A stretch of DNA of 64,000 nucleotides from Parcubacteria group bacterium Licking1014_17 (GCA_007376485.1 VMGJ01000001.1:41788-105787); one strand, 5' to 3'. Positions 9,650 to 43,018 are shown, counted from the stretch's first letter. Numbers and translations are program-made. Notes: generated by a model from the sequence alone, not told the origin.

Positions 9650-10456
9650 ATGAGGACCTATACTAAAAAATTTCAGGACAGATTACGCCTTGAGAAGCGG
9701 CGGAGATCCGTTGTTAAGCCGATTATTTATACGCTTGTTGTTTTAGCCGTTCTCGCCGCCGGCATTTTTGTCCTTTTCTTTTCCGATTTATTTTACGTGA
9801 AAGAAATAAATATTTCCGGAGCCGAAAAAATCCAGGGGCTCAATGTCGCCCAGTTCGTCAATAGTTGGCTGGACTCGGGGTTTATCGGGATTAAGCGCCG
9901 GAGCAACTCAATCATTTTCGGGCAGGACATGCTCGCGCGCTCTCTGATGAACCAGTCGGCGAGAATTTCTTCCGTAGTCATAAAAAGAGAGTCGCCGCAC
10001 AAGCTTGACATAACCGTTACCGAGCGTTCGCCGGCGGGCATTTGGTGTTACGAAACGAGCGGCAGCTGCTACTATTTTGACACTAACGGCTACGCTTACA
10101 GCAAAATCGGGGCCACATCAGGACACGTGTTTCTTAAGGTCAACGATGAGGTCAAGCAGGATACTGAAATCGGACGTCCCGTTTCGGACAATTCTTTATT
10201 CCAACTGGTAAAAAAGGTCAGTGATTCTTTAGCGCAGGCGAAATTTGCCATTACGGAGTTTGTTATTCCTAAAGATAATTTAAACGAACTGGATTTCAGA
10301 ACTAATCTTGGTTTTCTGGTGAAAATAGACACGACAGAGGATATAGACAGGCAAATTTCAGCCCTTAATCTTTTATTAAGCGAAAAACCTTATCTTCTCA
10401 AGCATCTTCTTGAATACATAGACCTCCGAATCCCGAGCAGGATTTATTACAAATAA
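9650..10456 (+). CDS. ftsQ: cell division protein FtsQ/DivIB-like
   Basis: Basic cytoplasmic N-term, single TM, POTRA-like 'VKEINISG', beta domain, C-terminal 'YIDLRIPSRIYY' typical of FtsQ. Confidence 0.7.
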   Translation: MRTYTKKFQDRLRLEKRRRSVVKPIIYTLVVLAVLAAGIFVLFFSDLFYVKEINISGAEKIQGLNVAQFVNSWLDSGFIGIKRRSNSIIFGQDMLARSLMNQSARISSVVIKRESPHKLDITVTERSPAGIWCYETSGSCYYFDTNGYAYSKIGATSGHVFLKVNDEVKQDTEIGRPVSDNSLFQLVKKVSDSLAQAKFAITEFVIPKDNLNELDFRTNLGFLVKIDTTEDIDRQISALNLLLSEKPYLLKHLLEYIDLRIPSRIYYK

Positions 10457-10476
10457 TCCCTGGTTTGCCGGAGAAT

Positions 10477-10600
10477 ATGTCTTTTCGCAGATGCTCGGGC
10501 TTTCCAGCGAAGTCCTCGCTTATAGTTCGCCAGTTTTCTCCTGCCGGCACACCGGCGGTAGACCAAGCAAAACTGACTCGCTGTACTGCTCAAAGACATA
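10477..10600 (+). repeat. structured intergenic element family A, copy A2
   Basis: Same architecture as A1; apical hairpin replaced by 'CTGCCGG-CACA-CCGGCGG' (compensatory). Confidence 0.8.
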
Positions 10601-10641
10601 CTCCCTGGCAAAAAATTGTGGTGTTAATTATAAGTTTCCTT

Positions 10642-12447
10642 TTACTTTTCTATCCTGTACACAAAAATTGAGCCGCCGATATTTGCAACGGGTTTGTAGA
10701 TATCAAGCCATCTGTAATTCGGTTTGGAGGGATTTTTGTCGGTGCCGTAAGAACCGCGCAAAGATGTTGCCGAAACCGCCAGCCAGCCGTCCGACTGATT
10801 GTTTTTTATAAAATCGGCGACATCTTTATATTTCTTGGAATAGGTCCAGATATATCTGTCGCCGAGATAATAATGCGGGTCAGCCCAGCCGAAATAATCA
10901 AATTCAATTTTTTTGATATCCTGCCCTTTCACCCAGTCGCTGAATCTTATCAAATCCTGTCCCCAATCCAAGTTTGAATCAACCACATAATTGCTTGCCC
11001 CGTTAGAAACGGAGTTTTTTTCGGGGCTGGCGTTCGCCGTGCCGCTGATGAACTGGTTAAAATAACTTAAATAATTCGGGTAAGCGCGGAAATTTTCCAG
11101 CGCGTAAAAACCGATAATCACAAAAATGGCGGTAACGGTTATTTTACCCAAAGCGGCGCTCCTATTTTTTGCCGCGTTTATTATATTAACCATGGCTCCG
11201 GAAACCAGAATTATCGCCGCGCCGTAAATCGGCAAAAGATGGCGGATGCCGATATTCAGCCCGCCGATTACGCTTATGAAAATATAAACAGCCAGCCATA
11301 AACCGAGAGCCAATTCGTCAAAGTGATTTACGGCCCATGTTTTTTTATCTTTAGCCCAATCGCTTTTTATTGCCCGCGAAATAAACCAGACGATAGCAAC
11401 TACAACCAGAAACAGCCAGGCGATTGGTTCTTTTATCAAATAAACGAACGGGAAATAACCGCGCAGCGCCGTGCTGTAGACTTTGCCCAAGAAAAATATT
11501 GTGCCTCCTCCCCGCGCCGCCCGGTCCTCTGCCATCAAAACTCCGGCGCCATAATAAGCCAGCGCTCTCACGACCGGCACGCCCGAAAGCGTCTCTATTA
11601 TTTTTACAGGGACTTTGTTGGGATAAATCGCCAGAAATGTTTTTGTGTCCTGAATCTGCTTTTGAATAGGATAATTGAAAGTGTTTAAAAAATAAACCGG
11701 GGATACTATCAAAAATATTGCAATCAGAGTGATTTTTATGGTTCCGGAAATCGGGCGGCTTCCAGCGGTTTTTAGAAACACCGCGTAACCAACTATCGCC
11801 AGTATGAAAAAGTAGGGAACGAGAAGCACCGTGGAAAATTTTGTGAGCAGGGCAAAACCCAATCCGATACCTGCCCACCAGAGATTTTTTCCGGTCTGGT
11901 TTTTCAGGTATTTAATAAATAAATAAGAACTAACCAAAACGCCCGTCAACGCCGGCACGTCGGTAGTAACAAAATGGGCGTGCGAGAGAATCGTGGTTGA
12001 AAGGGAATACAAAACAACTGCGATAAACGAACCGAGCCGGCCGTATATTTTTTGAGTCCATACAAAAACAGCCGTGCCGCCAAGAATGAAAAATAACAGC
12101 ATTGGCAAACGGGCGACGAACCGGATTTTGTCGGCGTCATTGCCCGTAGTGTTGAATATGAGACTTCTGCCGAAATTCCACTCCCCATCCACGCCTTTCT
12201 GCCAGTCGGCAGAATCAAACGCGCCCTGCTTCAGCGGCAAAGCCAGCAAGGCGATTCCCGCCAGATCTTTCACCAAAGGCGGGTGTTCAGGATTCATTCT
12301 CATATCGGCTTTTTTGACGTAGGAATAGCCGGCGCCGATATGGGGAACCTCGTCAATAATAAGCGATTCGTGCCACGAGCTTGCATAACTTAAAACAGCG
12401 CCAAGAAGAATAACAGCCGCCGCCAGAAGAATTGCCGAACGTTTCAT
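10642..12447 (-). CDS. GT-C fold glycosyltransferase (ArnT/PMT family 39-like), polytopic membrane
   Basis: 601 aa, >10 TM helices in N-terminal part, first-loop 'IIDEVPH' acidic motif, C-terminal soluble domain; start overlaps stop of upstream paralog (TAATG). Confidence 0.6.
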   Translation of the reverse strand: MKRSAILLAAAVILLGAVLSYASSWHESLIIDEVPHIGAGYSYVKKADMRMNPEHPPLVKDLAGIALLALPLKQGAFDSADWQKGVDGEWNFGRSLIFNTTGNDADKIRFVARLPMLLFFILGGTAVFVWTQKIYGRLGSFIAVVLYSLSTTILSHAHFVTTDVPALTGVLVSSYLFIKYLKNQTGKNLWWAGIGLGFALLTKFSTVLLVPYFFILAIVGYAVFLKTAGSRPISGTIKITLIAIFLIVSPVYFLNTFNYPIQKQIQDTKTFLAIYPNKVPVKIIETLSGVPVVRALAYYGAGVLMAEDRAARGGGTIFFLGKVYSTALRGYFPFVYLIKEPIAWLFLVVVAIVWFISRAIKSDWAKDKKTWAVNHFDELALGLWLAVYIFISVIGGLNIGIRHLLPIYGAAIILVSGAMVNIINAAKNRSAALGKITVTAIFVIIGFYALENFRAYPNYLSYFNQFISGTANASPEKNSVSNGASNYVVDSNLDWGQDLIRFSDWVKGQDIKKIEFDYFGWADPHYYLGDRYIWTYSKKYKDVADFIKNNQSDGWLAVSATSLRGSYGTDKNPSKPNYRWLDIYKPVANIGGSIFVYRIEK

Positions 12448-14015
12448 TATTCAAGAGGTATCACAACCGCGTTCTTTGGTAAACTGTAGCCCGAATCTAT
12501 AAGTTTGGGAGTAACATAATAAATATTGCGCTGTTTTTGCTTTTCCAGCGTGAATGTATCAGTCAGAAACATTACCGTTTGAGCGGGCATCGGGATTCCG
12601 TTAACTTGGACCCCTCCAGCTTTGACTAAAACGTAAACCGGTTTTGAAAGCGATTGCAGATAAACCTTATCGGCAAGCTTCACGTAATTTTCATTGAAAG
12701 CCGCGGCGGTGTTCGGGTCTTTAGCCCATTTGTTGAAATATTTGTCGTATTCAACGACGGAGAAAGAGAAGAGCAGAATGCAAATCGCGATTGTGGCAAT
12801 GAAAGTATCTTCAGCCACAAAGCCCGGAATTTCTTTTTCGTGCTTCGGGTCCTGCTCGTGATAACGTTTCTCTATCAGCGTGAATATCCACCAAAGCGTT
12901 TCAGCAGCAAAAATACAGACGACCGGCGTGACGAGGATGGTTCTCAAGGCGTGGGGGATTCCTTCGTTGGAAAATATTCCCGGCAGGAGTCCGATTACCA
13001 GCCAGGATAAAAGCATCGCGTGCGCCGCCGAATGGTGGCCGTGGGCTTCTTTGGATTTTACCGTTTTAACAATGCTTCTGATGACGCCGATTAAGAAAAG
13101 TATCCCAACCGGCCAGATAAGCATCGCCGAGCCGGATAGATTATGGCGCCAGTTCAAGTCGCCTTTCGTGAAAAACATCGCGATTGTTTTTCCGGCATTG
13201 GCTATTATTTGCCACAGGGGATTATCGGCGCTAAAAACCGATACCTGTCCGGCGCGGTAGAATAACATGCCGGGATTATTCATAAAGTACCAAACCAAAG
13301 GCGCCGCGGCTAAAATGCCGAGTATAATGGTCAGTCCCAATCCGCGGAGAATGTAATTGCTGGCGTGCTTGCCTGCTCCGACGGCGACATGTTTTCTGAC
13401 GGTAGCCCAATACACCACTAAAGTTATTATAGCTATCAACGGAGCGACCCTGAAAGGCAGGTATGTCTGCAGCCCAAGTCCAAACAACAAACCGCTCGCC
13501 CCGAAGTCCCATAAACTTGCCCTCGCAAGCCCGAGCCAGAAGAAATACAAAGCCCAGACCAGAAACAGAGGGGCCAGAATGCCGGCAAAGGCGATGCGGG
13601 AAAATAAAACATGCCAGAAAGAAATCGCCAGCAAAAAACTTGCGAATGCCGCCGTCTGCCAATTGAATAATTGTTTGACCAGCAGATACAAACCAAGCAC
13701 CGTCAGCGTGCCGGCAAGCGCCGGTATCAATCTTAATACCCACGGCTTATTGCCAAACGCGTTTGTCGCTATCGAGAGCAGGTTAATATACAACCCCTCC
13801 CGTCCGTTATTGTCTTTGTAAAATACTTTGTAATTTCCGGTTTCGTATGCCTGAATGGCTTCGTTGCCGTTTATGGCTTCGTCCGGATAAAGTCCGGGCG
13901 GAGTAGCGGCTAAATTATTGAAGCGGAAAAACGCGGCGGTGAAAAGTATAAAAACCGCCACAATCAATTCTTTTTTCTTATGGTTCATAATCTGATAATA
14001 GTAGTAATGGGACAT
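12447..14015 (-). CDS. GT-C fold glycosyltransferase (ArnT/PMT family 39-like), polytopic membrane
   Basis: 522 aa, multi-TM, 'GLYPDEAINGNEA' resembling the ArnT/PMT DE loop motif; paralogous to downstream gene. Confidence 0.6.
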   Translation of the reverse strand: MSHYYYYQIMNHKKKELIVAVFILFTAAFFRFNNLAATPPGLYPDEAINGNEAIQAYETGNYKVFYKDNNGREGLYINLLSIATNAFGNKPWVLRLIPALAGTLTVLGLYLLVKQLFNWQTAAFASFLLAISFWHVLFSRIAFAGILAPLFLVWALYFFWLGLARASLWDFGASGLLFGLGLQTYLPFRVAPLIAIITLVVYWATVRKHVAVGAGKHASNYILRGLGLTIILGILAAAPLVWYFMNNPGMLFYRAGQVSVFSADNPLWQIIANAGKTIAMFFTKGDLNWRHNLSGSAMLIWPVGILFLIGVIRSIVKTVKSKEAHGHHSAAHAMLLSWLVIGLLPGIFSNEGIPHALRTILVTPVVCIFAAETLWWIFTLIEKRYHEQDPKHEKEIPGFVAEDTFIATIAICILLFSFSVVEYDKYFNKWAKDPNTAAAFNENYVKLADKVYLQSLSKPVYVLVKAGGVQVNGIPMPAQTVMFLTDTFTLEKQKQRNIYYVTPKLIDSGYSLPKNAVVIPLE

Positions 14016-31230: not shown

Positions 31231-33588
31231 ATGTTTATCAGGGATGATTTTATAAATAGTTTTGATTATATTCTCTACAGGATAATCAGGTTCGGCATTC
31301 TGTTCGTGCCGTTTATTTCTCTGGTTGTAATTAGGAATATTTATTCGCCGTTTGAATTCAGTAAAGGGATTGTTTTCCGGGTAATCACCGAAATAATTTT
31401 TTTCATTTATGTTTATCTGGCGTTTAAATATCCGAATCTCCGCCCGTCTTTTTTTAAAAAAAGGCCGGATAAATATGTGCTGGCCGGTTTGGTCGCCTTA
31501 GTGGTTCTCGTAGTATGGCATTTTATTTCCGGATTATTCAGTTCAAGCTGGACTCTTAGTTTTTGGGGCTATATAGAGAGGATGGGCGGCATTTTCGCGT
31601 TGCTTCACTATATCGCTTTTTTTGGAGTTGCCGCTTCAATACTGCGCACGAGGAAAGAGTGGGAAAATCTTATCTGGGCTTCGGTGGCGGCGGCGCTGAT
31701 TTCATCAGTTTACGGCATTCTGCAAAAATATTCCGTAAGCGCGGTTGTCGGCGCGGACCAGAGGTTCAGAATTTTCGGGACCGTCGGCAACCCGGCTATA
31801 TTCGCCGGCTATCTGCTTTTTAATTTCTATTTTGTTTTATACCTGTCTTCGCGTCAGGAATCGAAAATACGCAGATTCCTTCTGTATTTCGCCGCATTCA
31901 TATTCGCATCCGCGATAATTTTGTCAGCCTCCCGGGGAGCGGCGGCGGCTCTAATTGTAAGTTTTGTTTTTTTGATTTTTTATATTCTGTATAAAAAAAG
32001 CGCCAGTCCATACGGAAAAAAGAAGAGCTTGATTATCGCGGCGCTCGCGGTAGTCATTATTGCCACAATTTTTTCCGGGATTGTATTAACTCGTTCCGGG
32101 TCCGGGCTCGGATATTTTTCCAGACTGACCGATTTCAGTGTGAAGAGCGGCTCCATAAATTCGCGGTTGCTTGTCTGGGGCATGGCGCTAAAAGGGATAG
32201 CCGAAAAACCGGTTTTGGGCTGGGGTCCCGAAAATTTTATAGCCGTTTATTACAAGAAATACGACCCTAAAATGTATGAGTCGCCGGCTCAAGATTATTC
32301 TTCTGACAGGGCTCATAATATTATTTTGGATTGGCTGGCTGCCGTCGGTGTTGTGGGCTTGCTGTCTTATCTGCTGATTTGGTACTGCGCGATAAGGAAA
32401 ATTGGCGCCCGGGATTACAATGATATGCCGTATTTTTCTCGAGGAGCGCTTTATGCCGCCGCCGTCGCGTATTTTGTTTTTAATTGCACTTTTTTTGACA
32501 CGACTAACACTTATCTGATGGTTATTTTTTTTATGGGCTTGGCTTTTCTTTGGGACGATTATGTGGCAGACGGAGTGGCGACAAAAGTGCCGGAAGGTAA
32601 TACCCCGGTCAACACCGTAGTCGGCGTATTGGCTCTGGTTTCCTGTTCTATTTTAATTATCTGGGCGAATATCCTGCCGTTTCTGTCAAACTATTATACA
32701 AATATGAATAAGAGGGCAAACAGCAGGGGGGATTTCGGGGAAGCGTTTAAGTATCTTGAACTCGCGAGAAACACCGCCACATGGACGGAAACCGACGCCG
32801 TGAGGAATTTAACTTCAGAACTGATAACCGCCCTGAACACGCAAGCGGATTATTTTAAAAACGAAGATAACAGAAAATCTTTCGGGGTTATCGCGCAGGA
32901 TCTTCGCGACGAGATGGAAAAACGTCCGGAGGACGCCGCTTCGTACACTTTTTTATTTAAAATGGAACAAATACTCGCGGCAAATTTTGGAAAGCAGATT
33001 AAACCCGTTGAAGATACCATCTGGACAGCAACCGCCATATTTCCCAAATTGATTCCGCTTTATTATGAACTTTATTACAGCGCCTTGATACGAAATGATT
33101 TTGAAGGAGCCACGAATGTAGCGAACAAAATATTGGAAATCAGACAGGACTTGCCCTTTGGAAAGTTTTGGCTCGCGTATGTCATAACTCGGAAGGATTT
33201 AAACGATAAAAATAGGACAAAACTGCGGAGTTCTTTAAATACCTTGGGCGACAGCTTTGACAGTTCGTTGTTTAACGCAGGCGATAATTACGGCAGTATA
33301 AAACCGTTGCTTGACGAGTTGAGTTATAAATTAAGGAAGACGGGTTATTATCTGGAGATGAGAGATTTGCATTTAATGATAGCAAAATATAAGCCTTCAA
33401 GTTATGTTTATGCGAGCTACGCGAGTTATATGATGCGTGACTTAAAATCAGCCATGAAATACGCCGACGAAGCGCTCGCTCTTGACAATAGCCTAATGAG
33501 CAGTAAGGACTATGAAACATTAGCCGACATTTATGGGGCATTGGGTGATAGAAAAAAACAAGGAGAAGCATACATAAAGATTCAATAA
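31231..33588 (+). CDS. Wzy_C (O-antigen ligase / O-oligosaccharyltransferase-like) polytopic membrane protein with C-terminal TPR repeats
   Basis: 785 aa; ~12 TM helices; 'SASRGAAAALIVSFVFLIF' matches Wzy_C/RfaL/PglL-type ligase core; C-terminal ~300 aa of TPR-like helical repeats ('DYETLADIYGALGDRKKQGEAY'). Confidence 0.65.
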   Translation: MFIRDDFINSFDYILYRIIRFGILFVPFISLVVIRNIYSPFEFSKGIVFRVITEIIFFIYVYLAFKYPNLRPSFFKKRPDKYVLAGLVALVVLVVWHFISGLFSSSWTLSFWGYIERMGGIFALLHYIAFFGVAASILRTRKEWENLIWASVAAALISSVYGILQKYSVSAVVGADQRFRIFGTVGNPAIFAGYLLFNFYFVLYLSSRQESKIRRFLLYFAAFIFASAIILSASRGAAAALIVSFVFLIFYILYKKSASPYGKKKSLIIAALAVVIIATIFSGIVLTRSGSGLGYFSRLTDFSVKSGSINSRLLVWGMALKGIAEKPVLGWGPENFIAVYYKKYDPKMYESPAQDYSSDRAHNIILDWLAAVGVVGLLSYLLIWYCAIRKIGARDYNDMPYFSRGALYAAAVAYFVFNCTFFDTTNTYLMVIFFMGLAFLWDDYVADGVATKVPEGNTPVNTVVGVLALVSCSILIIWANILPFLSNYYTNMNKRANSRGDFGEAFKYLELARNTATWTETDAVRNLTSELITALNTQADYFKNEDNRKSFGVIAQDLRDEMEKRPEDAASYTFLFKMEQILAANFGKQIKPVEDTIWTATAIFPKLIPLYYELYYSALIRNDFEGATNVANKILEIRQDLPFGKFWLAYVITRKDLNDKNRTKLRSSLNTLGDSFDSSLFNAGDNYGSIKPLLDELSYKLRKTGYYLEMRDLHLMIAKYKPSSYVYASYASYMMRDLKSAMKYADEALALDNSLMSSKDYETLADIYGALGDRKKQGEAYIKIQ

Positions 33589-33668: not shown

Positions 33669-34433
33669 ATGAGTAAAAAGCCGTCGTTTTTCTCGGCGAG
33701 TGCCGAATTGAAGGTTGTGGTATTCGTTGCCGTGTTTGTCTTCTTTTCTTGGATTTTTATTGATAACAGAATCTATTTTAATTTTTTTAAATCGTTGGAC
33801 GCCAACGCGGCCACAAGCGGAACGGCCAGCCAAAATATGAGTATTGATGTGGGTGTGGGGCTTACTTTCGTGAAATACAGCAGTGTTGCATGGCGCAATG
33901 ATTCGGAGACTCCCACGAGTACTATAACTTCCGGCACTCCTCTGCATTCTACGCAAGCCTTGCAGGTTACGACTAACGACAATTACACAATATCGGTCGG
34001 TCGAAAAAGGCAAAGCCCCAATACGACACTCGCTTCGGCCAGCGATGTGACTATTCATATAGAAGATGCGAGTACAGGTATTGATGTTTTTAACGGGCTG
34101 GCAAATTGCACTACTGCTACAAGCACGACAGCCTACTGGCCTGTCACGGGAGCTGTATCAGTCGGTATTGGCTTCAGCAACTGGAAAACCCAGATTGCCG
34201 GCGATAAAAGCTCTTGCTGGGGAACGGGGACTGTAGATAATGAATCTACCCCCTCCACAAATAGATATGCCGCGCTTCAAGCGTCAGCCAGCGCCAGTAC
34301 GTTTTTGTCAACTACTAATCATCCCTTGGGGGTTTCGTATTTTTCCGTCGTGTACCGACTAGACGTAACGGCTAGCCAAAGAGCCACCAACTATTCAGGC
34401 ACGGTTAATTATACGGCGACTACCCAACCCTGA
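33669..34433 (+). CDS. small surface protein sharing the giant protein C-terminal domain
   Basis: 254 aa; N-terminal hydrophobic anchor; aligned motifs with end of giant protein: 'IDVF(N/D)GL', 'SCWGTGT', 'NRYAAL', C-terminal 'Y(S/G)G(T/M)V.Y..TA'. Confidence 0.7.
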   Translation: MSKKPSFFSASAELKVVVFVAVFVFFSWIFIDNRIYFNFFKSLDANAATSGTASQNMSIDVGVGLTFVKYSSVAWRNDSETPTSTITSGTPLHSTQALQVTTNDNYTISVGRKRQSPNTTLASASDVTIHIEDASTGIDVFNGLANCTTATSTTAYWPVTGAVSVGIGFSNWKTQIAGDKSSCWGTGTVDNESTPSTNRYAALQASASASTFLSTTNHPLGVSYFSVVYRLDVTASQRATNYSGTVNYTATTQP

Positions 34434-34475
34434 TCGATTTTGCGCCGCAACGGCAACTAATTTAAATGATTAATT

Positions 34476-35405
34476 ATGATGAAAAGATTTAACAAGAAAA
34501 TAATAATAACACTGGTGATTATTTTGGGTGTTTTTATGTTATCTCTTGGTTTTGTTTGGGCGATAGGCGTGGGGATATCCATTTCTCCATTGAAATATAA
34601 ATATAGTGTCGACCCAGGCACGGTTATAGATGATGTGATTAATGTCGGCAATCCGAATGCAGGTGATCTTAGAGTGAAGGTTGAGTTTCAGGATTTTATG
34701 GTTACCGAGGGTAATAATATCAAATGGATTCCAAACGACATCGAGAACCCCCATAAAATGGTTGACTGGATTGATATTGATACGGAGCCGTTTACGGTGG
34801 CCCCGGGGAAACAGGTAGCCGTGCCCTTTAAAATAAATGTCCCGAAAAACGCCACTCCGGGAGGAAAATACGCGGCAATATTTTTCAGCGAGGCGGATAA
34901 AGGTGGCGGAAATTTATTAGGCGCGATCGCACGTGTCGGGTCACTGATTATTATGAATGTTAATGGTGACGTCAAGCAAACCGGGCAGCTGGTTGATTTC
35001 ACCGGGCCCACCATAGCGTGGAGCGGACCGGTCAATTTTGTTCTTAGTATGATGAACGTGGGCACCACGCATTTTGAGGTAAAGCCGGTGGTCACGATAA
35101 ATAATTTTTTCTGGCAAAGCGCAAAGATATTGCCGGAGTCAAAATTTATTTATCCCAATGTCAAGAGAGATATTCCGATTAAATGGGAGAAAAGCAATCC
35201 GTTCGGATTGTACAGCGCCAAAGTTTCCGTAACCGATGGGGAGGGGACTGTTTTTGAGAAAACAAAATGGTTTGTCGCAATTCCGGCTACATATGCCATA
35301 ATAATACTGGCCGTTGTTTTGGTGTTATGGTTTGGAATCAGGTTCTTTAAGCATACGTTCAAAATTTCCAAGATTATTACCAGAAAAAGCAGATCGGCAG
35401 CCTGA
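34476..35405 (+). CDS. surface protein with signal peptide and C-terminal TM anchor (paralog 1)
   Basis: 309 aa; N-terminal TM/signal, 'PGGKYAAIFFSEA', C-terminal 'AIIILAVVLVLWFGIRFFKH' + basic tail. Confidence 0.65.
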   Translation: MMKRFNKKIIITLVIILGVFMLSLGFVWAIGVGISISPLKYKYSVDPGTVIDDVINVGNPNAGDLRVKVEFQDFMVTEGNNIKWIPNDIENPHKMVDWIDIDTEPFTVAPGKQVAVPFKINVPKNATPGGKYAAIFFSEADKGGGNLLGAIARVGSLIIMNVNGDVKQTGQLVDFTGPTIAWSGPVNFVLSMMNVGTTHFEVKPVVTINNFFWQSAKILPESKFIYPNVKRDIPIKWEKSNPFGLYSAKVSVTDGEGTVFEKTKWFVAIPATYAIIILAVVLVLWFGIRFFKHTFKISKIITRKSRSAA

Positions 35406-35424
35406 TATTAATTATTATTTAATA

Positions 35425-36303
35425 ATGCTTAGAAACTTTCTAGTTATTGTTGGCGTAGCTTTGGTTACGTTGTTTTTTCCCTTTTTTGTCCATGCTTACC
35501 AGGGAGGAATTCTTTTGGATCCCGTAAAAATCGAACTTGACGTTTTTGCGGGACAGGCGGCATCTAGAGAGATAACAATTACGAATCAAAATCCGTTTGC
35601 GGTGACGATCAGTCCGGAAGTGATGAATTTTAAAGTTAGTGAGAACAGCGAAATTCACTGGTATATCGGCGCGATTTCAGACCCATTGCGGAGTTCGGCC
35701 TGGCTGGAGGTAGACGAAAAATCCTTTGTCCTTAAATCCGGCGAAGCAAAAAGAGTCGGAGTCAGCGTGGCAATACCCGCCGATACCCAACCGGGCGGTA
35801 GATATGCGACCGTTTTTTTCAACAGCAAGCCCGTTGATGCTCAAAATAAAAACGCGGACGTAAGAGCCGGCACTATGGTTATCATCAATGTACCCGGCGC
35901 CATCAGTAAAGCCGGGAATATTGTCGGTTTTAATTCGCCTTTATTCGTCATCGGCGGGCCGCTTGATTTCATCGTAAAATTCGCGAACACCGGCAAGACG
36001 CATTACAACACCAAAGCGACCCTGAAAATATCCAATTTATTCTGGAATGTCGCCAATATTTCAAGCGACCAAAAATTTTTATATCCGGACGTCATACGCG
36101 AGATTCCGATCAAATGGAACACGGCTTCCCTTTTTGGCATCTACACCGCGCAGCTGTCCGTTACCGACGGCCAGGGCGTCGTACATACGGCAGAGAAACA
36201 TTTTGTAGGCGTTTCCATCAAATATTTGGCGCTGCTCATTGCCTTAGGATTTATTGCCTGGTTTGGGAGAAAAAAACTTCTGGCCAGAAAAAGTAGCGCG
36301 TAA
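35425..36303 (+). CDS. surface protein with signal peptide and C-terminal TM anchor (paralog 2)
   Basis: ORF open from 35314 but upstream gene ends 35405; ATG 35425; 'PGGRYATVFFNSK', C-terminal 'YLALLIALGFIAWFGRKKLLARK'; co-linear similarity with 34476 gene. Confidence 0.65.
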   Translation: MLRNFLVIVGVALVTLFFPFFVHAYQGGILLDPVKIELDVFAGQAASREITITNQNPFAVTISPEVMNFKVSENSEIHWYIGAISDPLRSSAWLEVDEKSFVLKSGEAKRVGVSVAIPADTQPGGRYATVFFNSKPVDAQNKNADVRAGTMVIINVPGAISKAGNIVGFNSPLFVIGGPLDFIVKFANTGKTHYNTKATLKISNLFWNVANISSDQKFLYPDVIREIPIKWNTASLFGIYTAQLSVTDGQGVVHTAEKHFVGVSIKYLALLIALGFIAWFGRKKLLARKSSA

Positions 36304-36319
36304 TTTATTTCTCTAACTA

Positions 36320-36964
36320 ATGGTTGATAAGTTTTCACACAAGATATTTTTTGTGTTCCTGTTTGCAGCCCTGGTTTTTATTTGTATAACAAAAGTATAC
36401 GCGGCAGATCCAGTAGACCAAAACGTTACTATAACCGTAGGGCAAACCGGTATTGTATATTTGAATTTTACTTTTAGCCCCCAAGGCAGATGGACCGGCG
36501 GAGGAAATAATGACGCGTCAAATGTTGTCGTTGAGGTAAGACCCGTAGACGGCAATAAGGACAGTATAATTTTTAGCGAGGAAGTGACTACCGACAACAG
36601 CGGCCAATATTCATCCTTGCTTCTGGATAATGTAAGTCCGGGAACATATGACGTGAGCGCCAAGGGTTGGGCAACTCTAAGAAAAAAGGAGGTAACCGTA
36701 ATATTGGCGGAGGGCAATAACACCATTGATTTTACCGACACGGGCGCCGATAAAGCCCTCTCCGGAGATTTGGATTCAACGACCCGGGTCGGAAGCGCCG
36801 AAAGCGGTGATAACGAAATCAGCGCCGCCGATTATTCAACTTTGATCGGAAATTACAATACGGTGCAGGACAGGTATGATTTGGATAAATATACGGACCA
36901 GTTAATCGCCGGCCCGGATTATTCAATTCTTGTATCGAATTATAGCCAAGAAGGCGACCAGTGA
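36320..36964 (+). CDS. secreted protein: carboxypeptidase-regulatory-like domain + dockerin-like tandem Ca-binding repeats
   Basis: Signal peptide 'FFVFLFAALVFICITKVYA'; 'LDNVSPGTYDVSAKGW' (CarbopepD_reg-like); C-terminal duplicated 'GDLDSTTRVGS..ISAADYSTLIGNY' / 'DRYDLDKYTDQLIAGPDYSILVSNY' dockerin-like. Confidence 0.55.
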   Translation: MVDKFSHKIFFVFLFAALVFICITKVYAADPVDQNVTITVGQTGIVYLNFTFSPQGRWTGGGNNDASNVVVEVRPVDGNKDSIIFSEEVTTDNSGQYSSLLLDNVSPGTYDVSAKGWATLRKKEVTVILAEGNNTIDFTDTGADKALSGDLDSTTRVGSAESGDNEISAADYSTLIGNYNTVQDRYDLDKYTDQLIAGPDYSILVSNYSQEGDQ

Positions 36965-36977
36965 TGTTTTATAAAAA

Positions 36978-37658
36978 ATGAATACGCGCTTTTCAGTCAA
37001 AATTATTTTTTTTACCGCCGTTCTGGCATTAGTTATTATTTTATTGGCATTCAACAACAAGGAGAGCCGAAATAACGGTAATAATTTGATAACCGTCTAT
37101 GGAAATGTGTTAAATGCCCGGGATAATCTTCCCCTTGGCAGTGTTACTGTCCAATCGGGCGAGTCCAGAAGCGTAACTGATTATCAGGGCAAATTTGTCT
37201 TACTGAATGTCCCCCGAGACGGTGAAATAAGGATTGAAAGCGGAAACTTATATGAAGAAGTTATTATTCCTATTAATGGGCGATCGAACATTACCGTTTA
37301 TCTGGATGGAGATTTGCTTGGAATTTTTCGGGATATTGAGCGATATGAAAACAACAGGCAATATTCAAAAATCTATGACCTATTTACGCCTGATTTAAAA
37401 AAACATTACACGCTGGATGCTTACTTGAAAAAAAAGAATAGCTGGCGCGATAACATTACGGAGGGAAAAAATTATGACGGGTTCAAAATGGAATTTCTGC
37501 GCCATACCGTCAAAGGCGGCAATTCTTCATCTATTATAACGGTTACTACTAAATATTCCTGGCTTAAGGGCGAGGAAACTAAATATATTCACGCAATTGA
37601 TGTAAAATTAATATGGGACGGCAACATCTGGGAGTTGGGCAATGATTTGATCTGGTAA
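36978..37658 (+). CDS. membrane-anchored protein with carboxypeptidase-regulatory-like domain
   Basis: 'VYGNVLNARDNLPLGSVTVQSGESRSVTDYQGKFVLLNVPRDGEIRIE' matches CarbopepD_reg-like beta-sandwich pattern. Confidence 0.55.
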   Translation: MNTRFSVKIIFFTAVLALVIILLAFNNKESRNNGNNLITVYGNVLNARDNLPLGSVTVQSGESRSVTDYQGKFVLLNVPRDGEIRIESGNLYEEVIIPINGRSNITVYLDGDLLGIFRDIERYENNRQYSKIYDLFTPDLKKHYTLDAYLKKKNSWRDNITEGKNYDGFKMEFLRHTVKGGNSSSIITVTTKYSWLKGEETKYIHAIDVKLIWDGNIWELGNDLIW

Positions 37659-39815
37659 ATGAATTTTAAAGGCAAAAATATTTTTTACTACGCAAGCCGG
37701 TTGTTTTTCGGGTTCTTTGCGCTCGCCGGCATTTTTTATTTTTTATCGTGTGATGCCAGGGCGGCTGTCACAATGGACATGACCGCCTCCGCCGGCGTCA
37801 AATATGTCGGTACCACGTTTAATGTCAGTGTGAGGGTAAAGTTGGATAGTCAGAATATTGATACCGTTTCGTTGAGAAATCTGAACTTTGACCACGATAT
37901 TTTGGAAATAACCGGAACGTCCATCCAGAGCTTGTTTTCATCCCAAGCAACATTAAGAAATGTTACCGACAACACCGCGGGGACAAAAAGGCTCGATATC
38001 GGCAAATTGCCGCTAACCGATGATTACACCAATTCATCGGCAGCTACATTTGCAATTTTAACCTTTAAGGTGAAGAACGTTGGTACCGGAACGACAACCT
38101 TAACAATAGATTATGACGGTAGCCCGGGAAAATCCGGAGTTTTTTTGGCAGGAACAAATTATTTGGCGTCGGTGCTGCCGCTTGATGTTTCGCTTGGTTT
38201 GGACGACACGGGACCGGCTTTCAGCAATTGTACGCCCGTGGCTAACGTCGTGAACCAGCAGGTTACCGCCAACATAGTTTGCGACGTAACCGACACGGAG
38301 ACTGGAGTTTATCTGGGAGGTACGACTCTGACTGTCAACGGCATCACTTATTCCAATAGCGGAGCTAACCAGTACACAAGCGCCGAGATTGCCAACGGTT
38401 ACCAGTTGACCGTGAATCCCGAAGATAATCTGCCCTACAACACGTCCATAACGGTCAGCGGATCCGCGCAGGATAGCGCCTATGATGACGGTCCGGTACT
38501 GGCGCGAAATACCGGCACACTGGCGGAATACGCGTTTACCACCGAGGATGACGATGACGCGCCGACTATTTATAATAAAAGCCCCGACTCCGGCGCCACA
38601 AGTATTTCAGTGTCAACTAATGTCAGTTTTGGCATAAAAGACATTGCTGTTCCGGGAGACTATAATGGTCTTGGCGTTGATATTGATAGTATTCAAGTGA
38701 TTATATCCGCCGATAACTGGGGAACTGTAACCTACACTCACGGCGGCGAAAAACAATTCAGCCATTCCGGCAATCAATACGATTATACCATCACGATCAA
38801 CCCTTCGCCGGATTTTCCCCAAAATACCACCGTTACCGTAAGTATTGCCGCTGACGACCTGCACAGTTCACCTAATTCAGTATCCACCTCTTATTCGTTT
38901 ACCACGGCGGATACCTCTCTGCCGACATGTTCCAATTTTATACCGGCGGAGAATAAAGCGGATATCGAGCCAACCGACACTATCTCTTTTGATTGTTCCG
39001 ATTCCGGGGCAGGAATTAATATAGATACCATAAGCGTGATCGTTAATAAATCCACCTATACAAAATCAAAGAGCGGTTTTTCGTATACTGGCGACTCATC
39101 AAAATACAATATAGTCATAACTCCGCCGGGCGGATTTGCTTATGATTACGCTTTTGAGGTGATAATCAACGGCAGAGATATGAAAAGCAACTCAATAACG
39201 GAGACTAGCTACGGGTTGGCTACAAGAATACAAGGGGGAGGCGGCGGAGGCGGCGGAGGAGGAGGGGGAGGGGGAGGAGGAAATCAATGCCCGACCTGCC
39301 AAGTATGCCCGGCGCAACCATCGCCGGAATTTTCCAATGGGCCTTTGCCGACAGAAAATCCTTACTCAACTCCAAAACCCGGGAAAACACCCAATCCGGC
39401 CATTTGTCCTTCAATAGCACCCGAAGTTCCTTATCAAATACCGTTTGCCCCGACAATTGAAGATATGCAATCTGTCGCGTTGCAAAAAGTCAACGGGACC
39501 GATGTTCAAGGCATCACCATTTATCAAATATCCGGACCGATGATTACATTGGAAGGAACCGCGAAACCGCAGGGTTTGGTTGGCCTCCAAATGGAACCGG
39601 GACCGATTGTGGTCCAAACAATCGCCGACAACAAAGGTGAATGGAAAGTAACCATATCCAATGTTCTGGGTCCCGCCGAAAATCTGCTATACGCGATCTC
39701 CCGCAACCCAATTAACGGCGCCACGGAAAAAAAATTCCTGATTATCCTTCATAACACCTATAAAGGCATAGATGCTTATCTCCGGGCGCAAAAGATGAGA
39801 ACGCAACTTTGGTAG
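37659..39815 (+). CDS. cell-surface protein: cohesin-like N-terminal domain, three Ig-like repeats, poly-Gly + Pro-rich linker, C-terminal domain
   Basis: Signal/TM; 'TTFNVSVRVKLDSQNIDTVSLRNLNFDHDILEITG..ATFAILTFKVKNVGTGTTTLTIDYD' cohesin-like; repeated 'D(T/D)..P..S(N/P)..P' Ig-like units; 16xGly; 'NQCPTCQVCPAQPSPE..'. Confidence 0.6.
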   Translation: MNFKGKNIFYYASRLFFGFFALAGIFYFLSCDARAAVTMDMTASAGVKYVGTTFNVSVRVKLDSQNIDTVSLRNLNFDHDILEITGTSIQSLFSSQATLRNVTDNTAGTKRLDIGKLPLTDDYTNSSAATFAILTFKVKNVGTGTTTLTIDYDGSPGKSGVFLAGTNYLASVLPLDVSLGLDDTGPAFSNCTPVANVVNQQVTANIVCDVTDTETGVYLGGTTLTVNGITYSNSGANQYTSAEIANGYQLTVNPEDNLPYNTSITVSGSAQDSAYDDGPVLARNTGTLAEYAFTTEDDDDAPTIYNKSPDSGATSISVSTNVSFGIKDIAVPGDYNGLGVDIDSIQVIISADNWGTVTYTHGGEKQFSHSGNQYDYTITINPSPDFPQNTTVTVSIAADDLHSSPNSVSTSYSFTTADTSLPTCSNFIPAENKADIEPTDTISFDCSDSGAGINIDTISVIVNKSTYTKSKSGFSYTGDSSKYNIVITPPGGFAYDYAFEVIINGRDMKSNSITETSYGLATRIQGGGGGGGGGGGGGGGGNQCPTCQVCPAQPSPEFSNGPLPTENPYSTPKPGKTPNPAICPSIAPEVPYQIPFAPTIEDMQSVALQKVNGTDVQGITIYQISGPMITLEGTAKPQGLVGLQMEPGPIVVQTIADNKGEWKVTISNVLGPAENLLYAISRNPINGATEKKFLIILHNTYKGIDAYLRAQKMRTQLW
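39232..39282 (+). repeat. GGN codon homopolymer (16 consecutive Gly)
   Basis: 'GGGGGAGGCGGCGGAGGCGGCGGAGGAGGAGGGGGAGGGGGAGGAGGA'. Confidence 0.85.
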
Positions 39816-39956
39816 CTGTTGATTCTGGCGCTGTTGATTATTTTCATGCTTGTCCTTAGGGCGCTACACAAATCTCTTCATCCGGAAGAATACGATAAAA
39901 ACAAGAGGGAATTGAAATGATGTATTAATTTGATAGTTGATGTATGATAGGTTTCT

Positions 39957-42495: not shown

Positions 42496-42825
42496 CTAAT
42501 TTCCGCCGTAACCCCCGCCGCCGAAACCGTGGCTTCCGCGGAATCCTCCTCCGCCGCCTTGTCTGGGCGGGCGGGCTTCCGGCGGGCGGGCTTCGTTGAC
42601 CGTAATGGTGCGGCCGTCAAATTCCTTGCCGTTCATGCCTTCTATGGCTTTTTGGGCTTCTTCCTCCGTGGACATTTCCACAAAGCCGAATCCCTTTGAA
42701 CGGCCGGACATTCTGTCGATAATGACTGCCGCCGACTCAACCGTGCCAAACTGGGCGAATGCCTCTTTCAGCTTTTCCTCGGTTGTATCGTAAGACAATC
42801 CTCCGACGTATAATTTCTTTGCCAT
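42496..42825 (-). CDS. RRM-type glycine-rich RNA-binding protein
   Basis: 'KLYVGGLSYDTTEEKLKEAF' RNP2, 'KGFGFVEM' RNP1, C-terminal 'GGGGGFRGSHGFGGGGYGG'; start set at MAKK (ORF extends to 42858). Confidence 0.8.
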   Translation of the reverse strand: MAKKLYVGGLSYDTTEEKLKEAFAQFGTVESAAVIIDRMSGRSKGFGFVEMSTEEEAQKAIEGMNGKEFDGRTITVNEARPPEARPPRQGGGGGFRGSHGFGGGGYGGN

Positions 42826-43018
42826 TTTTTCTGTACACACAACTAAACTAATTTGCAAGTCCGACCCTCGCTACTTTTTCCCTTTCGGACTCGCACATGT
42901 TTATTTGTGTAAGGAAGTAAAAAAATAGAAGCGCTTGCATCTAATATTAATAATAAGACATTCCGGGGGAGAAAGCAATAGAAGAGCAGCTGCCGGACGG
43001 GATGGTTAACTGCTATCC

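Follow-up and report, generated by a model that had tools for sequence, protein, structure and literature searches.

A candidate cohesin–dockerin gene pair in a surface-protein island of a Parcubacteria group bacterium

Does a member of the Parcubacteria encode a cohesin–dockerin pair on neighbouring genes, and what would such a pair build? This question is raised by a stretch of 64,000 nucleotides, hereafter the window, whose coordinates are used throughout. It comes from Parcubacteria group bacterium Licking1014_17, an inhabitant of groundwater with a very small genome. Three open reading frames (ORFs) lie here on the + strand, at 36320-36964 (214 amino acids, aa), 36978-37658 (226 aa) and 37659-39815 (718 aa). 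An earlier sequence-only reading had proposed that the small protein ends in two dockerin-like calcium-binding segments, that the large protein begins with a cohesin-like domain, and that the two form a minimal scaffold-and-cargo system. The three ORFs are present as it placed them. The four peptides it quoted were also all found in place: in the 214-aa protein, GDLDSTTRVGS...ISAADYSTLIGNY spans aa 149-179 and DRYDLDKYTDQLIAGPDYSILVSNY spans aa 184-208; in the 718-aa protein, FNVSVRVKLDSQNIDTVSLRNLNFDHDILEITG spans aa 54-86 and ATFAILTFKVKNVGTGTTTLTIDYD spans aa 129-153. Our analysis indicated that both modules are very probably true homologues of cohesin and dockerin; that they bind each other and function in two pieces appears plausible and rather likely, judged from the sequences. 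The features that carry this result are as follows.

36320-36964, + strand: 'cargo' gene, 214 aa, encoding a signal peptide, a β-sandwich and a C-terminal divergent dockerin.
36764-36961, + strand: divergent dockerin module, aa 149-214 (66 residues), conserved in eight family members.
37659-39815, + strand: 'scaffold' gene, 718 aa, encoding a signal peptide, a cohesin, three Big_5 immunoglobulin (Ig) domains, a poly-Gly and Cys/Pro-rich linker, and a membrane-proximal Ig-like domain.
37764-38216, + strand: cohesin domain, aa 36-186.

The N-terminal domain of the large protein was analysed by profile and by fold. PF00963, whose cutoff is 24.1 bits, matched the isolated domain (aa 35-186) with 24.7 and 24.6 bits at E 3e-5, the alignment covering positions 10-114 of the 139 in the profile. 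Cohesin was also matched in five of six orthologous domains; the orthologues P0009-P0013 are 38-46% identical to the 718-aa protein. The AlphaFold2 (AF2) model of the domain, made with six orthologues, had a mean predicted local distance difference test score (pLDDT) of 75 and a predicted template modelling score (pTM) of 0.75. When this model was compared with the Protein Data Bank (PDB) using Foldseek, the top 50 matches were almost all cohesins, the best being 1g1k (E 3e-7, probability 1.00), and the model superposed on solved cohesins better than on other β-sandwiches. The cohesin profile gave no match among PDB sequences, and the cohesin fragment gave none in a word-indexed homologue search; the orthologues were reached with the full-length protein. 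From the Pfam, orthologue, AF2 and Foldseek results, we concluded that the domain is a cohesin, as the sequence-only reading had proposed, and not merely an Ig-like sandwich.

The C-terminal module of the small protein is the best-conserved part of its family. The invariant residues are G149 and D150, then E161, G163, D164, N165, I167, D171, Y172 and L175, and then L188, D189, D200, Y201, S202, L204, V205, N207, Y208 and G212. A dockerin is defined by two tandem repeats, each a 12-residue EF-hand-like calcium loop, D-x-[DN]-x-D-G-x-x-x-x-x-D, followed by a helix; the canonical repeat reads G-D-x-N-G-D-N-x-I-x-x-x-D-F-S-x-L. In the window protein, repeat 1 is GDLD-[insertion]-GDNEISAADYSTLIGNYN (in full, GDLD-STTRVGSAES-GDNEISAADYSTL) and repeat 2 is DLDKYTDQLIAGPDYSILVSNY; set against the canonical repeat, repeat 2 reads DLDKYTDQLIAGPDYSIL. 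The insertion in loop 1 is placed between calcium-ligand positions 3 and 5 (D-x-D and G-D-N). Intermediates carry three extra residues in loop 1 (P0065 and the small-protein partner at the related locus L011) or nine (P0035), and loop 2 has two extra residues in the window copy and one in most relatives. The acidic positions 1, 3 and 12 of the calcium loops are retained in the window dockerin, which also has two helix motifs, DYSTLIGNY and DYSILVSNY. Over 19 positions, the two helix segments are alike at 13 in the family consensus and at 8 in the window copy. The calcium-binding segments proposed earlier thus show the duplication, the helix motifs and the acidic positions of a dockerin, but not the canonical loop spacing.

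We searched the module profile with full HMMER against 1.84 billion representative proteins. This yielded 48 matches at E ≤ 1e-3 (1.84e9 proteins), with Dockerin_1 proteins down to E 1e-9. Eight matches were the module's own family and one (P0029) was too long to scan; the other 39, all from outside the family, were scanned with Pfam, and PF00404 (Dockerin_1) was carried by 37 of them. Each EF-hand family occurred in 2 to 6 of the 39. Most distant matches were C-terminal, or nearly so, in proteins not otherwise related, and in P0030, whose positions were checked, the profile matched residues 1042-1091, on top of a Pfam dockerin at 1038-1088. Their consensus is GDxNGDNxIxxxDFSxLxxxYN...ADLNxDGxVxxxDFSILxxNYNxxG. 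An hhalign comparison of the family module with 24 of those dockerins gave a probability of 99.4%, and a hidden Markov model (HMM) of the same 24 singled out the 214-aa ORF among the 746 ORFs of the window (43.9 bits, E 5e-13), both figures being partly circular and inflated because the 24 were picked by resemblance to the query profile. The independent evidence for a dockerin is the library-wide E values together with the Pfam status of the matches.

A second bridge ran through homologues of the β-sandwich that precedes the module, which the family HMM found at E 1e-20 (the L011 partner) and 2e-10 (P0053). The C-terminal PF00404 score rises among partners and relatives, from 16.7 bits in the L011 partner and 17.5 in the L012 partner to 29.5 in P0065 and 43.5 in P0053. 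The last two carry a Pfam-passing dockerin at the same C-terminal position as the window module. Among the eight family members themselves, PF00404 touched two, with a best E of 0.015. Dockerin homology of the C-terminal module is thus detectable via profile intermediates and not by direct Pfam match, and the dockerin-like tail of the sequence-only reading stands in the former sense only. That reading had named as evidence against itself profile searches without cohesin or dockerin support, matching generic Ig-like or EF-hand folds alone. Since the profile bridges lead to PF00404 proteins, this was not the overall outcome; the direct profile search of the PDB, however, returned only an S100 EF-hand (E 0.08).

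We then considered the distribution of the two gene types, fetching genomic contexts from both sides, that is, for the small-protein homologues and for the large-protein orthologues. Eleven independent loci were informative (L001, L002/3, L004, L006, L007, L008, L011, L012, L014, L015 and L018). L009 equals L006, and L010 and L016 are similar to L007, so these were counted as redundant; L017 and L019 end at a contig edge and were left out as uninformative. Both gene types were at most ~6 kb apart in all 11 of these further loci and directly adjacent in nine, and no informative locus was without the partner gene. The genes of a pair are usually directly adjacent or overlapping.

Starting from the small-protein homologues, the cohesin gene was found adjacent in L001. 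The gene order is reversed in L002/L003, where a homologue of the 226-aa protein lies between the cohesin and dockerin genes, and in L004 the two genes are ~6 kb and three genes apart. Starting from the large-protein orthologues, the directly upstream gene encodes a β-sandwich–dockerin protein in L006, L007 and L008. A scan of GTDB species representatives gave two loci, both paired: L009, labelled Candidatus Dojkabacteria, and L010, labelled uncultured Candidatus Saccharibacteria. A metagenome scan gave L014, L015, L016 and L018, with the cohesin gene immediately downstream in each. In L011 and L012 the large proteins are P0016 (1041 aa, 32% identity, with Big_5, SLH domains and a C-terminal transmembrane helix) and P0023 (913 aa, 27% identity), both with a weak N-terminal match to the cohesin profile. 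The gene immediately upstream encodes a near-canonical C-terminal dockerin, LDLNRDGLANGIDL in L011 and ADLNADGIVNGLDL in L012. This dockerin is preceded by a homologous β-sandwich in L011 and by a segment that resembles a β-sandwich only by eye in L012. Each locus has one module of each type, and the other neighbour genes are not conserved, save occasional DUF916-like proteins. The presence of the partner in every informative locus is our main reason to think that the two modules work together, and it strongly supports the pairing proposed from the sequence alone.

The window itself follows the same pattern. Among its 746 six-frame ORFs, the dockerin HMM matched one ORF and the cohesin HMM one ORF, giving one dockerin gene and one cohesin gene, 694 bases apart with one gene between. 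The check for further dockerin proteins that had been suggested earlier, run within this 64-kb window, thus returned just the one.

Two of the related loci have Peptidase_S74 proteins directly beside the cohesin–dockerin pair, at 10885-15705 of L004 (1606 aa) and at 7838-11968 of L006 (1376 aa). Peptidase_S74 is the intramolecular chaperone of endosialidase-type fibres. A phage origin of the pair was considered and dropped: a search of viral contigs found no cargo-family protein, and the cohesin query gave one short partial match there (L013), to a protein that has no assigned function and does not belong to the family.

Beyond the cohesin, the large protein continues with a stalk, a linker and, past its stop codon, a potential anchor.

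38217-39218, + strand: stalk of three Ig-like (Big_5) domains, ~aa 187-520; PF13205, 39.8 bits in three stretches; kept in the orthologues.
39234-39284, + strand: run of 17 glycines (mixed GGN codons), aa 526-542; in the window copy only, absent in five of five orthologues.
39813-39920, + strand: in-frame TAG (39813-39815), 34 codons encoding LLILALLIIFMLVLRALHKSLHPEEYDKNKRELK, and TGA (39918-39920).

Compared with the PDB, the 718-aa sequence matched only the Gly-Ser linkers of single-chain variable fragments, a spurious result of the 17-glycine run. This run is followed by a Cys/Pro-rich linker and then by an Ig-like domain (Big_6, E 0.05). In the orthologues, the C-terminus is a hydrophobic helix with a basic tail inside the ORF. 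The codons after the TAG of the window copy encode the same arrangement, LLILALLIIFMLVLRALHKSLHPEEYDKNKRELK being a hydrophobic helix plus basic tail with a hydropathy of 2.68. If this anchor were included, the product would have the topology of a type I membrane protein, its cohesin lying at the membrane-distal end. Recoding of TAG was set aside, as TAG is an ordinary stop that ends 8 of the 38 long ORFs in the window. The codon at 39813-39815 should therefore be a nonsense change, a variant of the strain or of the assembly, or a position that is read through. As the TAG splits the stalk from the anchor, the complex may be released, unless the codon reflects an assembly error, a strain variant or readthrough.

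A sister family of ~1000 aa (P0014-P0022) has an N-terminal cohesin-like domain, a Big_5 stalk, SLH domains and a C-terminal transmembrane helix, which is the architecture of clostridial anchoring scaffoldins. Its member in L011, at 10001-13126, has the β-sandwich–dockerin gene immediately upstream.

The remainder of the small protein and the intervening gene were characterized as follows.

36440-36739, + strand: β-sandwich domain, ~aa 41-140, transthyretin/CarboxypepD_reg-like, with the conserved motif PGTYD[VI][ST]AKGW.
36978-37658, + strand: intervening gene, 226 aa, encoding an N-terminal membrane or signal anchor, a weak CarbopepD_reg_2-like segment and a C-terminal domain without assignment.

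The 214-aa protein is identical (100%) to TSC91947.1 (P0001), annotated "hypothetical protein CEN90_62" and encoded on a contig of 188 kb, and has a hydrophobic segment at aa 4-32. The AF2 model of its β-sandwich contains seven β-strands within residues 44-138, at a pLDDT of ~80. Foldseek matched this model to 4iyk (a Bacteroides carbohydrate-binding protein), to the carbohydrate-binding module (CBM) family CBM41 and to transthyretin-fold hydroxyisourate (HIU) hydrolases, at E 2e-4 to 1e-2. A sequence search of the PDB with the 214-aa protein gave nothing significant, 2wz8 appearing at E 0.05. The sequence-only reading had assigned CarbopepD_reg-like domains to both this protein and the intervening one. 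Both assignments fell under the cutoff, PF13620 giving 23.7 bits against 32.3 on the 214-aa protein and PF13715 16.1 bits against 32.2 (E 0.011) on the 226-aa protein. The modelled sandwich of the 214-aa protein is consistent with the transthyretin-like clan, so 'CarboxypepD_reg-like' is acceptable as a description of fold only. The 226-aa protein has a hydrophobic segment at aa 2-29, and L002/L003 was the only related locus with a homologue of it between the two genes of the pair; its gene is an accessory that is not always present.

The pair belongs to a group of six closely spaced + strand genes at 33669-39815, every product of which starts with a hydrophobic export segment according to hydropathy. 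Pfam and NCBIfam scans of seven full-length proteins found no catalytic domain and no glycoside hydrolase family; at full length, neither the cohesin nor the dockerin was picked up either. Promoter and terminator scans gave the same counts as in shuffled sequence.

The neighbouring genes were also inspected. The island opens with a 254-aa exported Ser/Thr-rich protein without a family match (33669-34433, + strand), in a tightly packed arrangement. It is followed by two exported paralogues (34476-35405 and 35314-36303, + strand), each with a C-terminal transmembrane helix and a basic tail; the start of the second is more likely at 35425. The first gave a sub-threshold match (E 1.4e-4) to WxLIP_PGBD/DUF916, the peptidoglycan-binding domain of Gram-positive WxL surface loci. 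Homologues occur less than 10 kb from the cohesin–dockerin pair in L002/L003 and in L011, and they may be part of the same surface apparatus. Directly upstream of the island, the gene at 31231-33588 (+ strand) encodes a 785-aa membrane protein with Wzy_C (O-antigen ligase/polymerase-like, E 7e-21); its long C-terminal extension may be TPR-like. Farther downstream, a 120-aa ORF on the - strand (42496-42858) resembles by eye an RRM-type RNA-binding protein, with a KGFGFVEM motif and a glycine-rich tail.

Several observations weigh against reading the locus as a cohesin–dockerin pair. PF00404 (gathering threshold 22.9 bits) gave no match at E ≤ 10 on the C-terminal 76 residues of the window protein, and the dockerin profile retrieved only an S100-A1 EF-hand from the PDB (E 0.08). 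The AF2 model has a pLDDT of only ~35 over the dockerin module, with helices placed at 169-177 and 198-204. The canonical 12-residue spacing of the calcium loops is broken by ~12 extra residues in loop 1 and the two in loop 2. The Pfam margin of the cohesin is just 0.6 bits, and the match is lost in the full-length scan, where only Big_5 appears. To these are added the partial circularity noted above, the search for further dockerins, which covered only 64 kb of the genome, and the stop of the Licking1014_17 scaffold ORF ahead of its membrane anchor. Taken at face value, the EF-hands from the PDB, the lack of a Pfam dockerin match, the marginal cohesin score and the EF-hand families among the distant matches would suit a generic EF-hand-like calcium-binding tail and a generic Ig-like adhesin, with a merely superficial likeness to dockerin and cohesin. 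We regard this as improbable, because Dockerin_1 occurs in 37 of the 39 distant matches and any EF-hand family in at most six, because those matches share the duplicated D-Y/F-S-x-L-x-x-N-Y/F-N helix motif as their dockerin signature, and because the top Foldseek matches of the N-terminal domain are cohesins, with a probability of 1.00.

True homologues need not bind each other, and the two genes could be neighbours simply as parts of one co-expressed surface-protein island. The tail might then have another ligand, for example a host molecule, the cell wall or a cohesin from a different locus, or might stabilize the small protein with calcium. The exclusively exported products of the island 33669-39815, the wide spacing in L004, the reversed order in L002 and the non-canonical calcium loops would all fit. 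So would the many non-cellulosomal dockerins without a known partner, in so far as they are described from Peer et al. (2009) in PMC13487519. However, the two gene types co-occur in every informative locus, even where the large proteins are only ~27-32% identical; the remaining neighbour genes are not conserved, and exactly one module of each type is present per locus. Furthermore, it is general knowledge that the two folds are each other's ligands in all characterized systems. Homologues without mutual binding thus seem possible but unlikely. A minimal cellulosome, in which the scaffold would gather polysaccharide-degrading enzymes at the cell surface, was also considered, since cohesin and dockerin are cellulosomal folds and the β-sandwich of the cargo weakly resembles CBMs (4iyk, CBM41, and 2wz8 at E 0.05). 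Even a single-cohesin system with one dockerin-bearing glycoside hydrolase of family 5 (GH5) has a counterpart in Cellulosilyticum lentocellum (PMC13487519). Yet a cellulosome is defined by a scaffoldin with at least two cohesins together with dockerin-fused glycoside hydrolases (PMC13487519), and we found in the window one cohesin without a tandem array and one dockerin, on a protein that has no catalytic domain, and likewise in the related loci. The sole dockerin protein of each locus bears no enzyme, and none of the seven proteins scanned belongs to a glycoside hydrolase family. The locus is therefore not a cellulosome, and we rejected this reading as very improbable.

Here, we propose a model for the cohesin–dockerin pair. 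The signal peptide would export the large protein, which, in the orthologues, the C-terminal helix and basic tail would hold in the membrane, and more distant relatives would add SLH cell-wall-binding domains to this anchoring. The Ig-like stalk would present the single cohesin at its membrane-distal N-terminus. The small protein would be secreted separately, and its duplicated loop–helix dockerin would plug into the cohesin. The transthyretin-like β-sandwich, probably a glycan- or partner-binding domain, would thereby be set at the tip of the stalk. The outcome would be a two-piece adhesin or display fibre, not an enzyme complex. The homology of both modules, the domain order, the export signals, the anchor and the conserved gene neighbourhood are shown by the present data; we infer the mutual binding of the modules, its need for calcium, and the recognition of a host cell or substrate by the tip domain through some ligand there. 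That this ligand is a glycan on a partner cell is only a guess. In its furthest form, which we consider doubtful, the model describes a modular attachment organelle of a few lineages of the candidate phyla radiation (CPR): an Ig stalk, anchored in the membrane or by SLH domains, would present a cohesin socket, to which a dockerin with remodelled calcium loops would fix a secreted, glycan-binding tip that holds a host or partner cell, the TAG toggling between an anchored and a released form.

A life in attachment to other cells is presumed for CPR bacteria (Patescibacteria), whose attachment molecules are mostly unknown. The locus offers concrete candidate partners, a cohesin-tipped stalk and a dockerin-tailed β-sandwich, encoded by neighbouring genes across diverged lineages. 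The pair is a candidate for a structure of surface display or attachment, of which few have been characterized in these bacteria. If the module is a working dockerin, its remodelled calcium loops would widen the known sequence range, and a naturally orthogonal one-to-one pair could be put to use in tagging proteins for assembly. Should the modules not bind, the locus would hold just two diverged domains in a surface-protein island. Our literature search found no work linking cohesin and dockerin in Parcubacteria; among papers on CPR that name both modules, no title or abstract concerns such a pair, and PMC7038595 describes none. Public annotation recognizes neither module: the small protein is 'hypothetical', and the precomputed Pfam assignments of relatives and orthologues contain no cohesin or dockerin.

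The closest known systems include OlpA and OlpC of Clostridium (Acetivibrio) thermocellum, established single-cohesin anchoring proteins with type I dockerin partners (PDB 3ul4 and 4dh2). As in those proteins, one cohesin on a surface-anchored protein would directly capture one dockerin protein, and SLH anchoring domains occur in the distant relatives P0014-P0022. Unlike OlpA and OlpC, the proteins described here use a C-terminal transmembrane helix as the anchor, place a Big_5 Ig stalk between the cohesin and this anchor, and have expanded calcium loops in the dockerin. In addition, the neighbouring gene supplies the partner, a small, non-catalytic protein with a β-sandwich rather than one of many enzymes, and nothing points to cellulolysis in the organism, a CPR bacterium. 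Outside cellulosomes, examples are the cohesin of Archaeoglobus fulgidus (PDB 2xdh) and the cohesins of Clostridium perfringens glycoside hydrolases (PDB 2vo8, 2w1n and 2jh2). The C. perfringens modules join large secreted glycoside hydrolases, whereas here a conserved two-gene unit has a fixed cargo family; for the A. fulgidus modules, we know of no conserved adjacent gene pair.

Cohesins and dockerins outside cellulosomes belong mostly to non-catalytic parent proteins, often one per protein, according to the part of Peer et al. (2009) reported in PMC13487519. Cohesin- and dockerin-bearing proteins have also been reported in Cloacimonadota, a poorly studied phylum (PMC8542988). The C. lentocellum system shares with ours the smallest possible set, one cohesin protein and one dockerin partner; there, a functional GH5 cellulase bears the dockerin, and a CBM is present on the cohesin protein (PMC13487519), whereas here no enzyme is involved and the cohesin stands on an Ig stalk with a membrane anchor. 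Within the CPR/Patescibacteria, SEML1_0315 of Southlakia epibionticum, the one genetically tractable Patescibacterium, is an essential dockerin-domain cell-envelope protein whose authors suggest host-glycan targeting for adhesion or degradation (PMC10633639). Our cargo protein is likened to it by description, not by sequence; that paper names no partner, and the word cohesin does not occur in it (PMC10633639). The locus described here is a new, unannotated member of the non-cellulosomal cohesin–dockerin class. What sets it apart is that the two genes form a fixed one-to-one pair, that the β-sandwich cargo is fixed as well, that the scaffold is an Ig stalk and that the calcium loops are remodelled.

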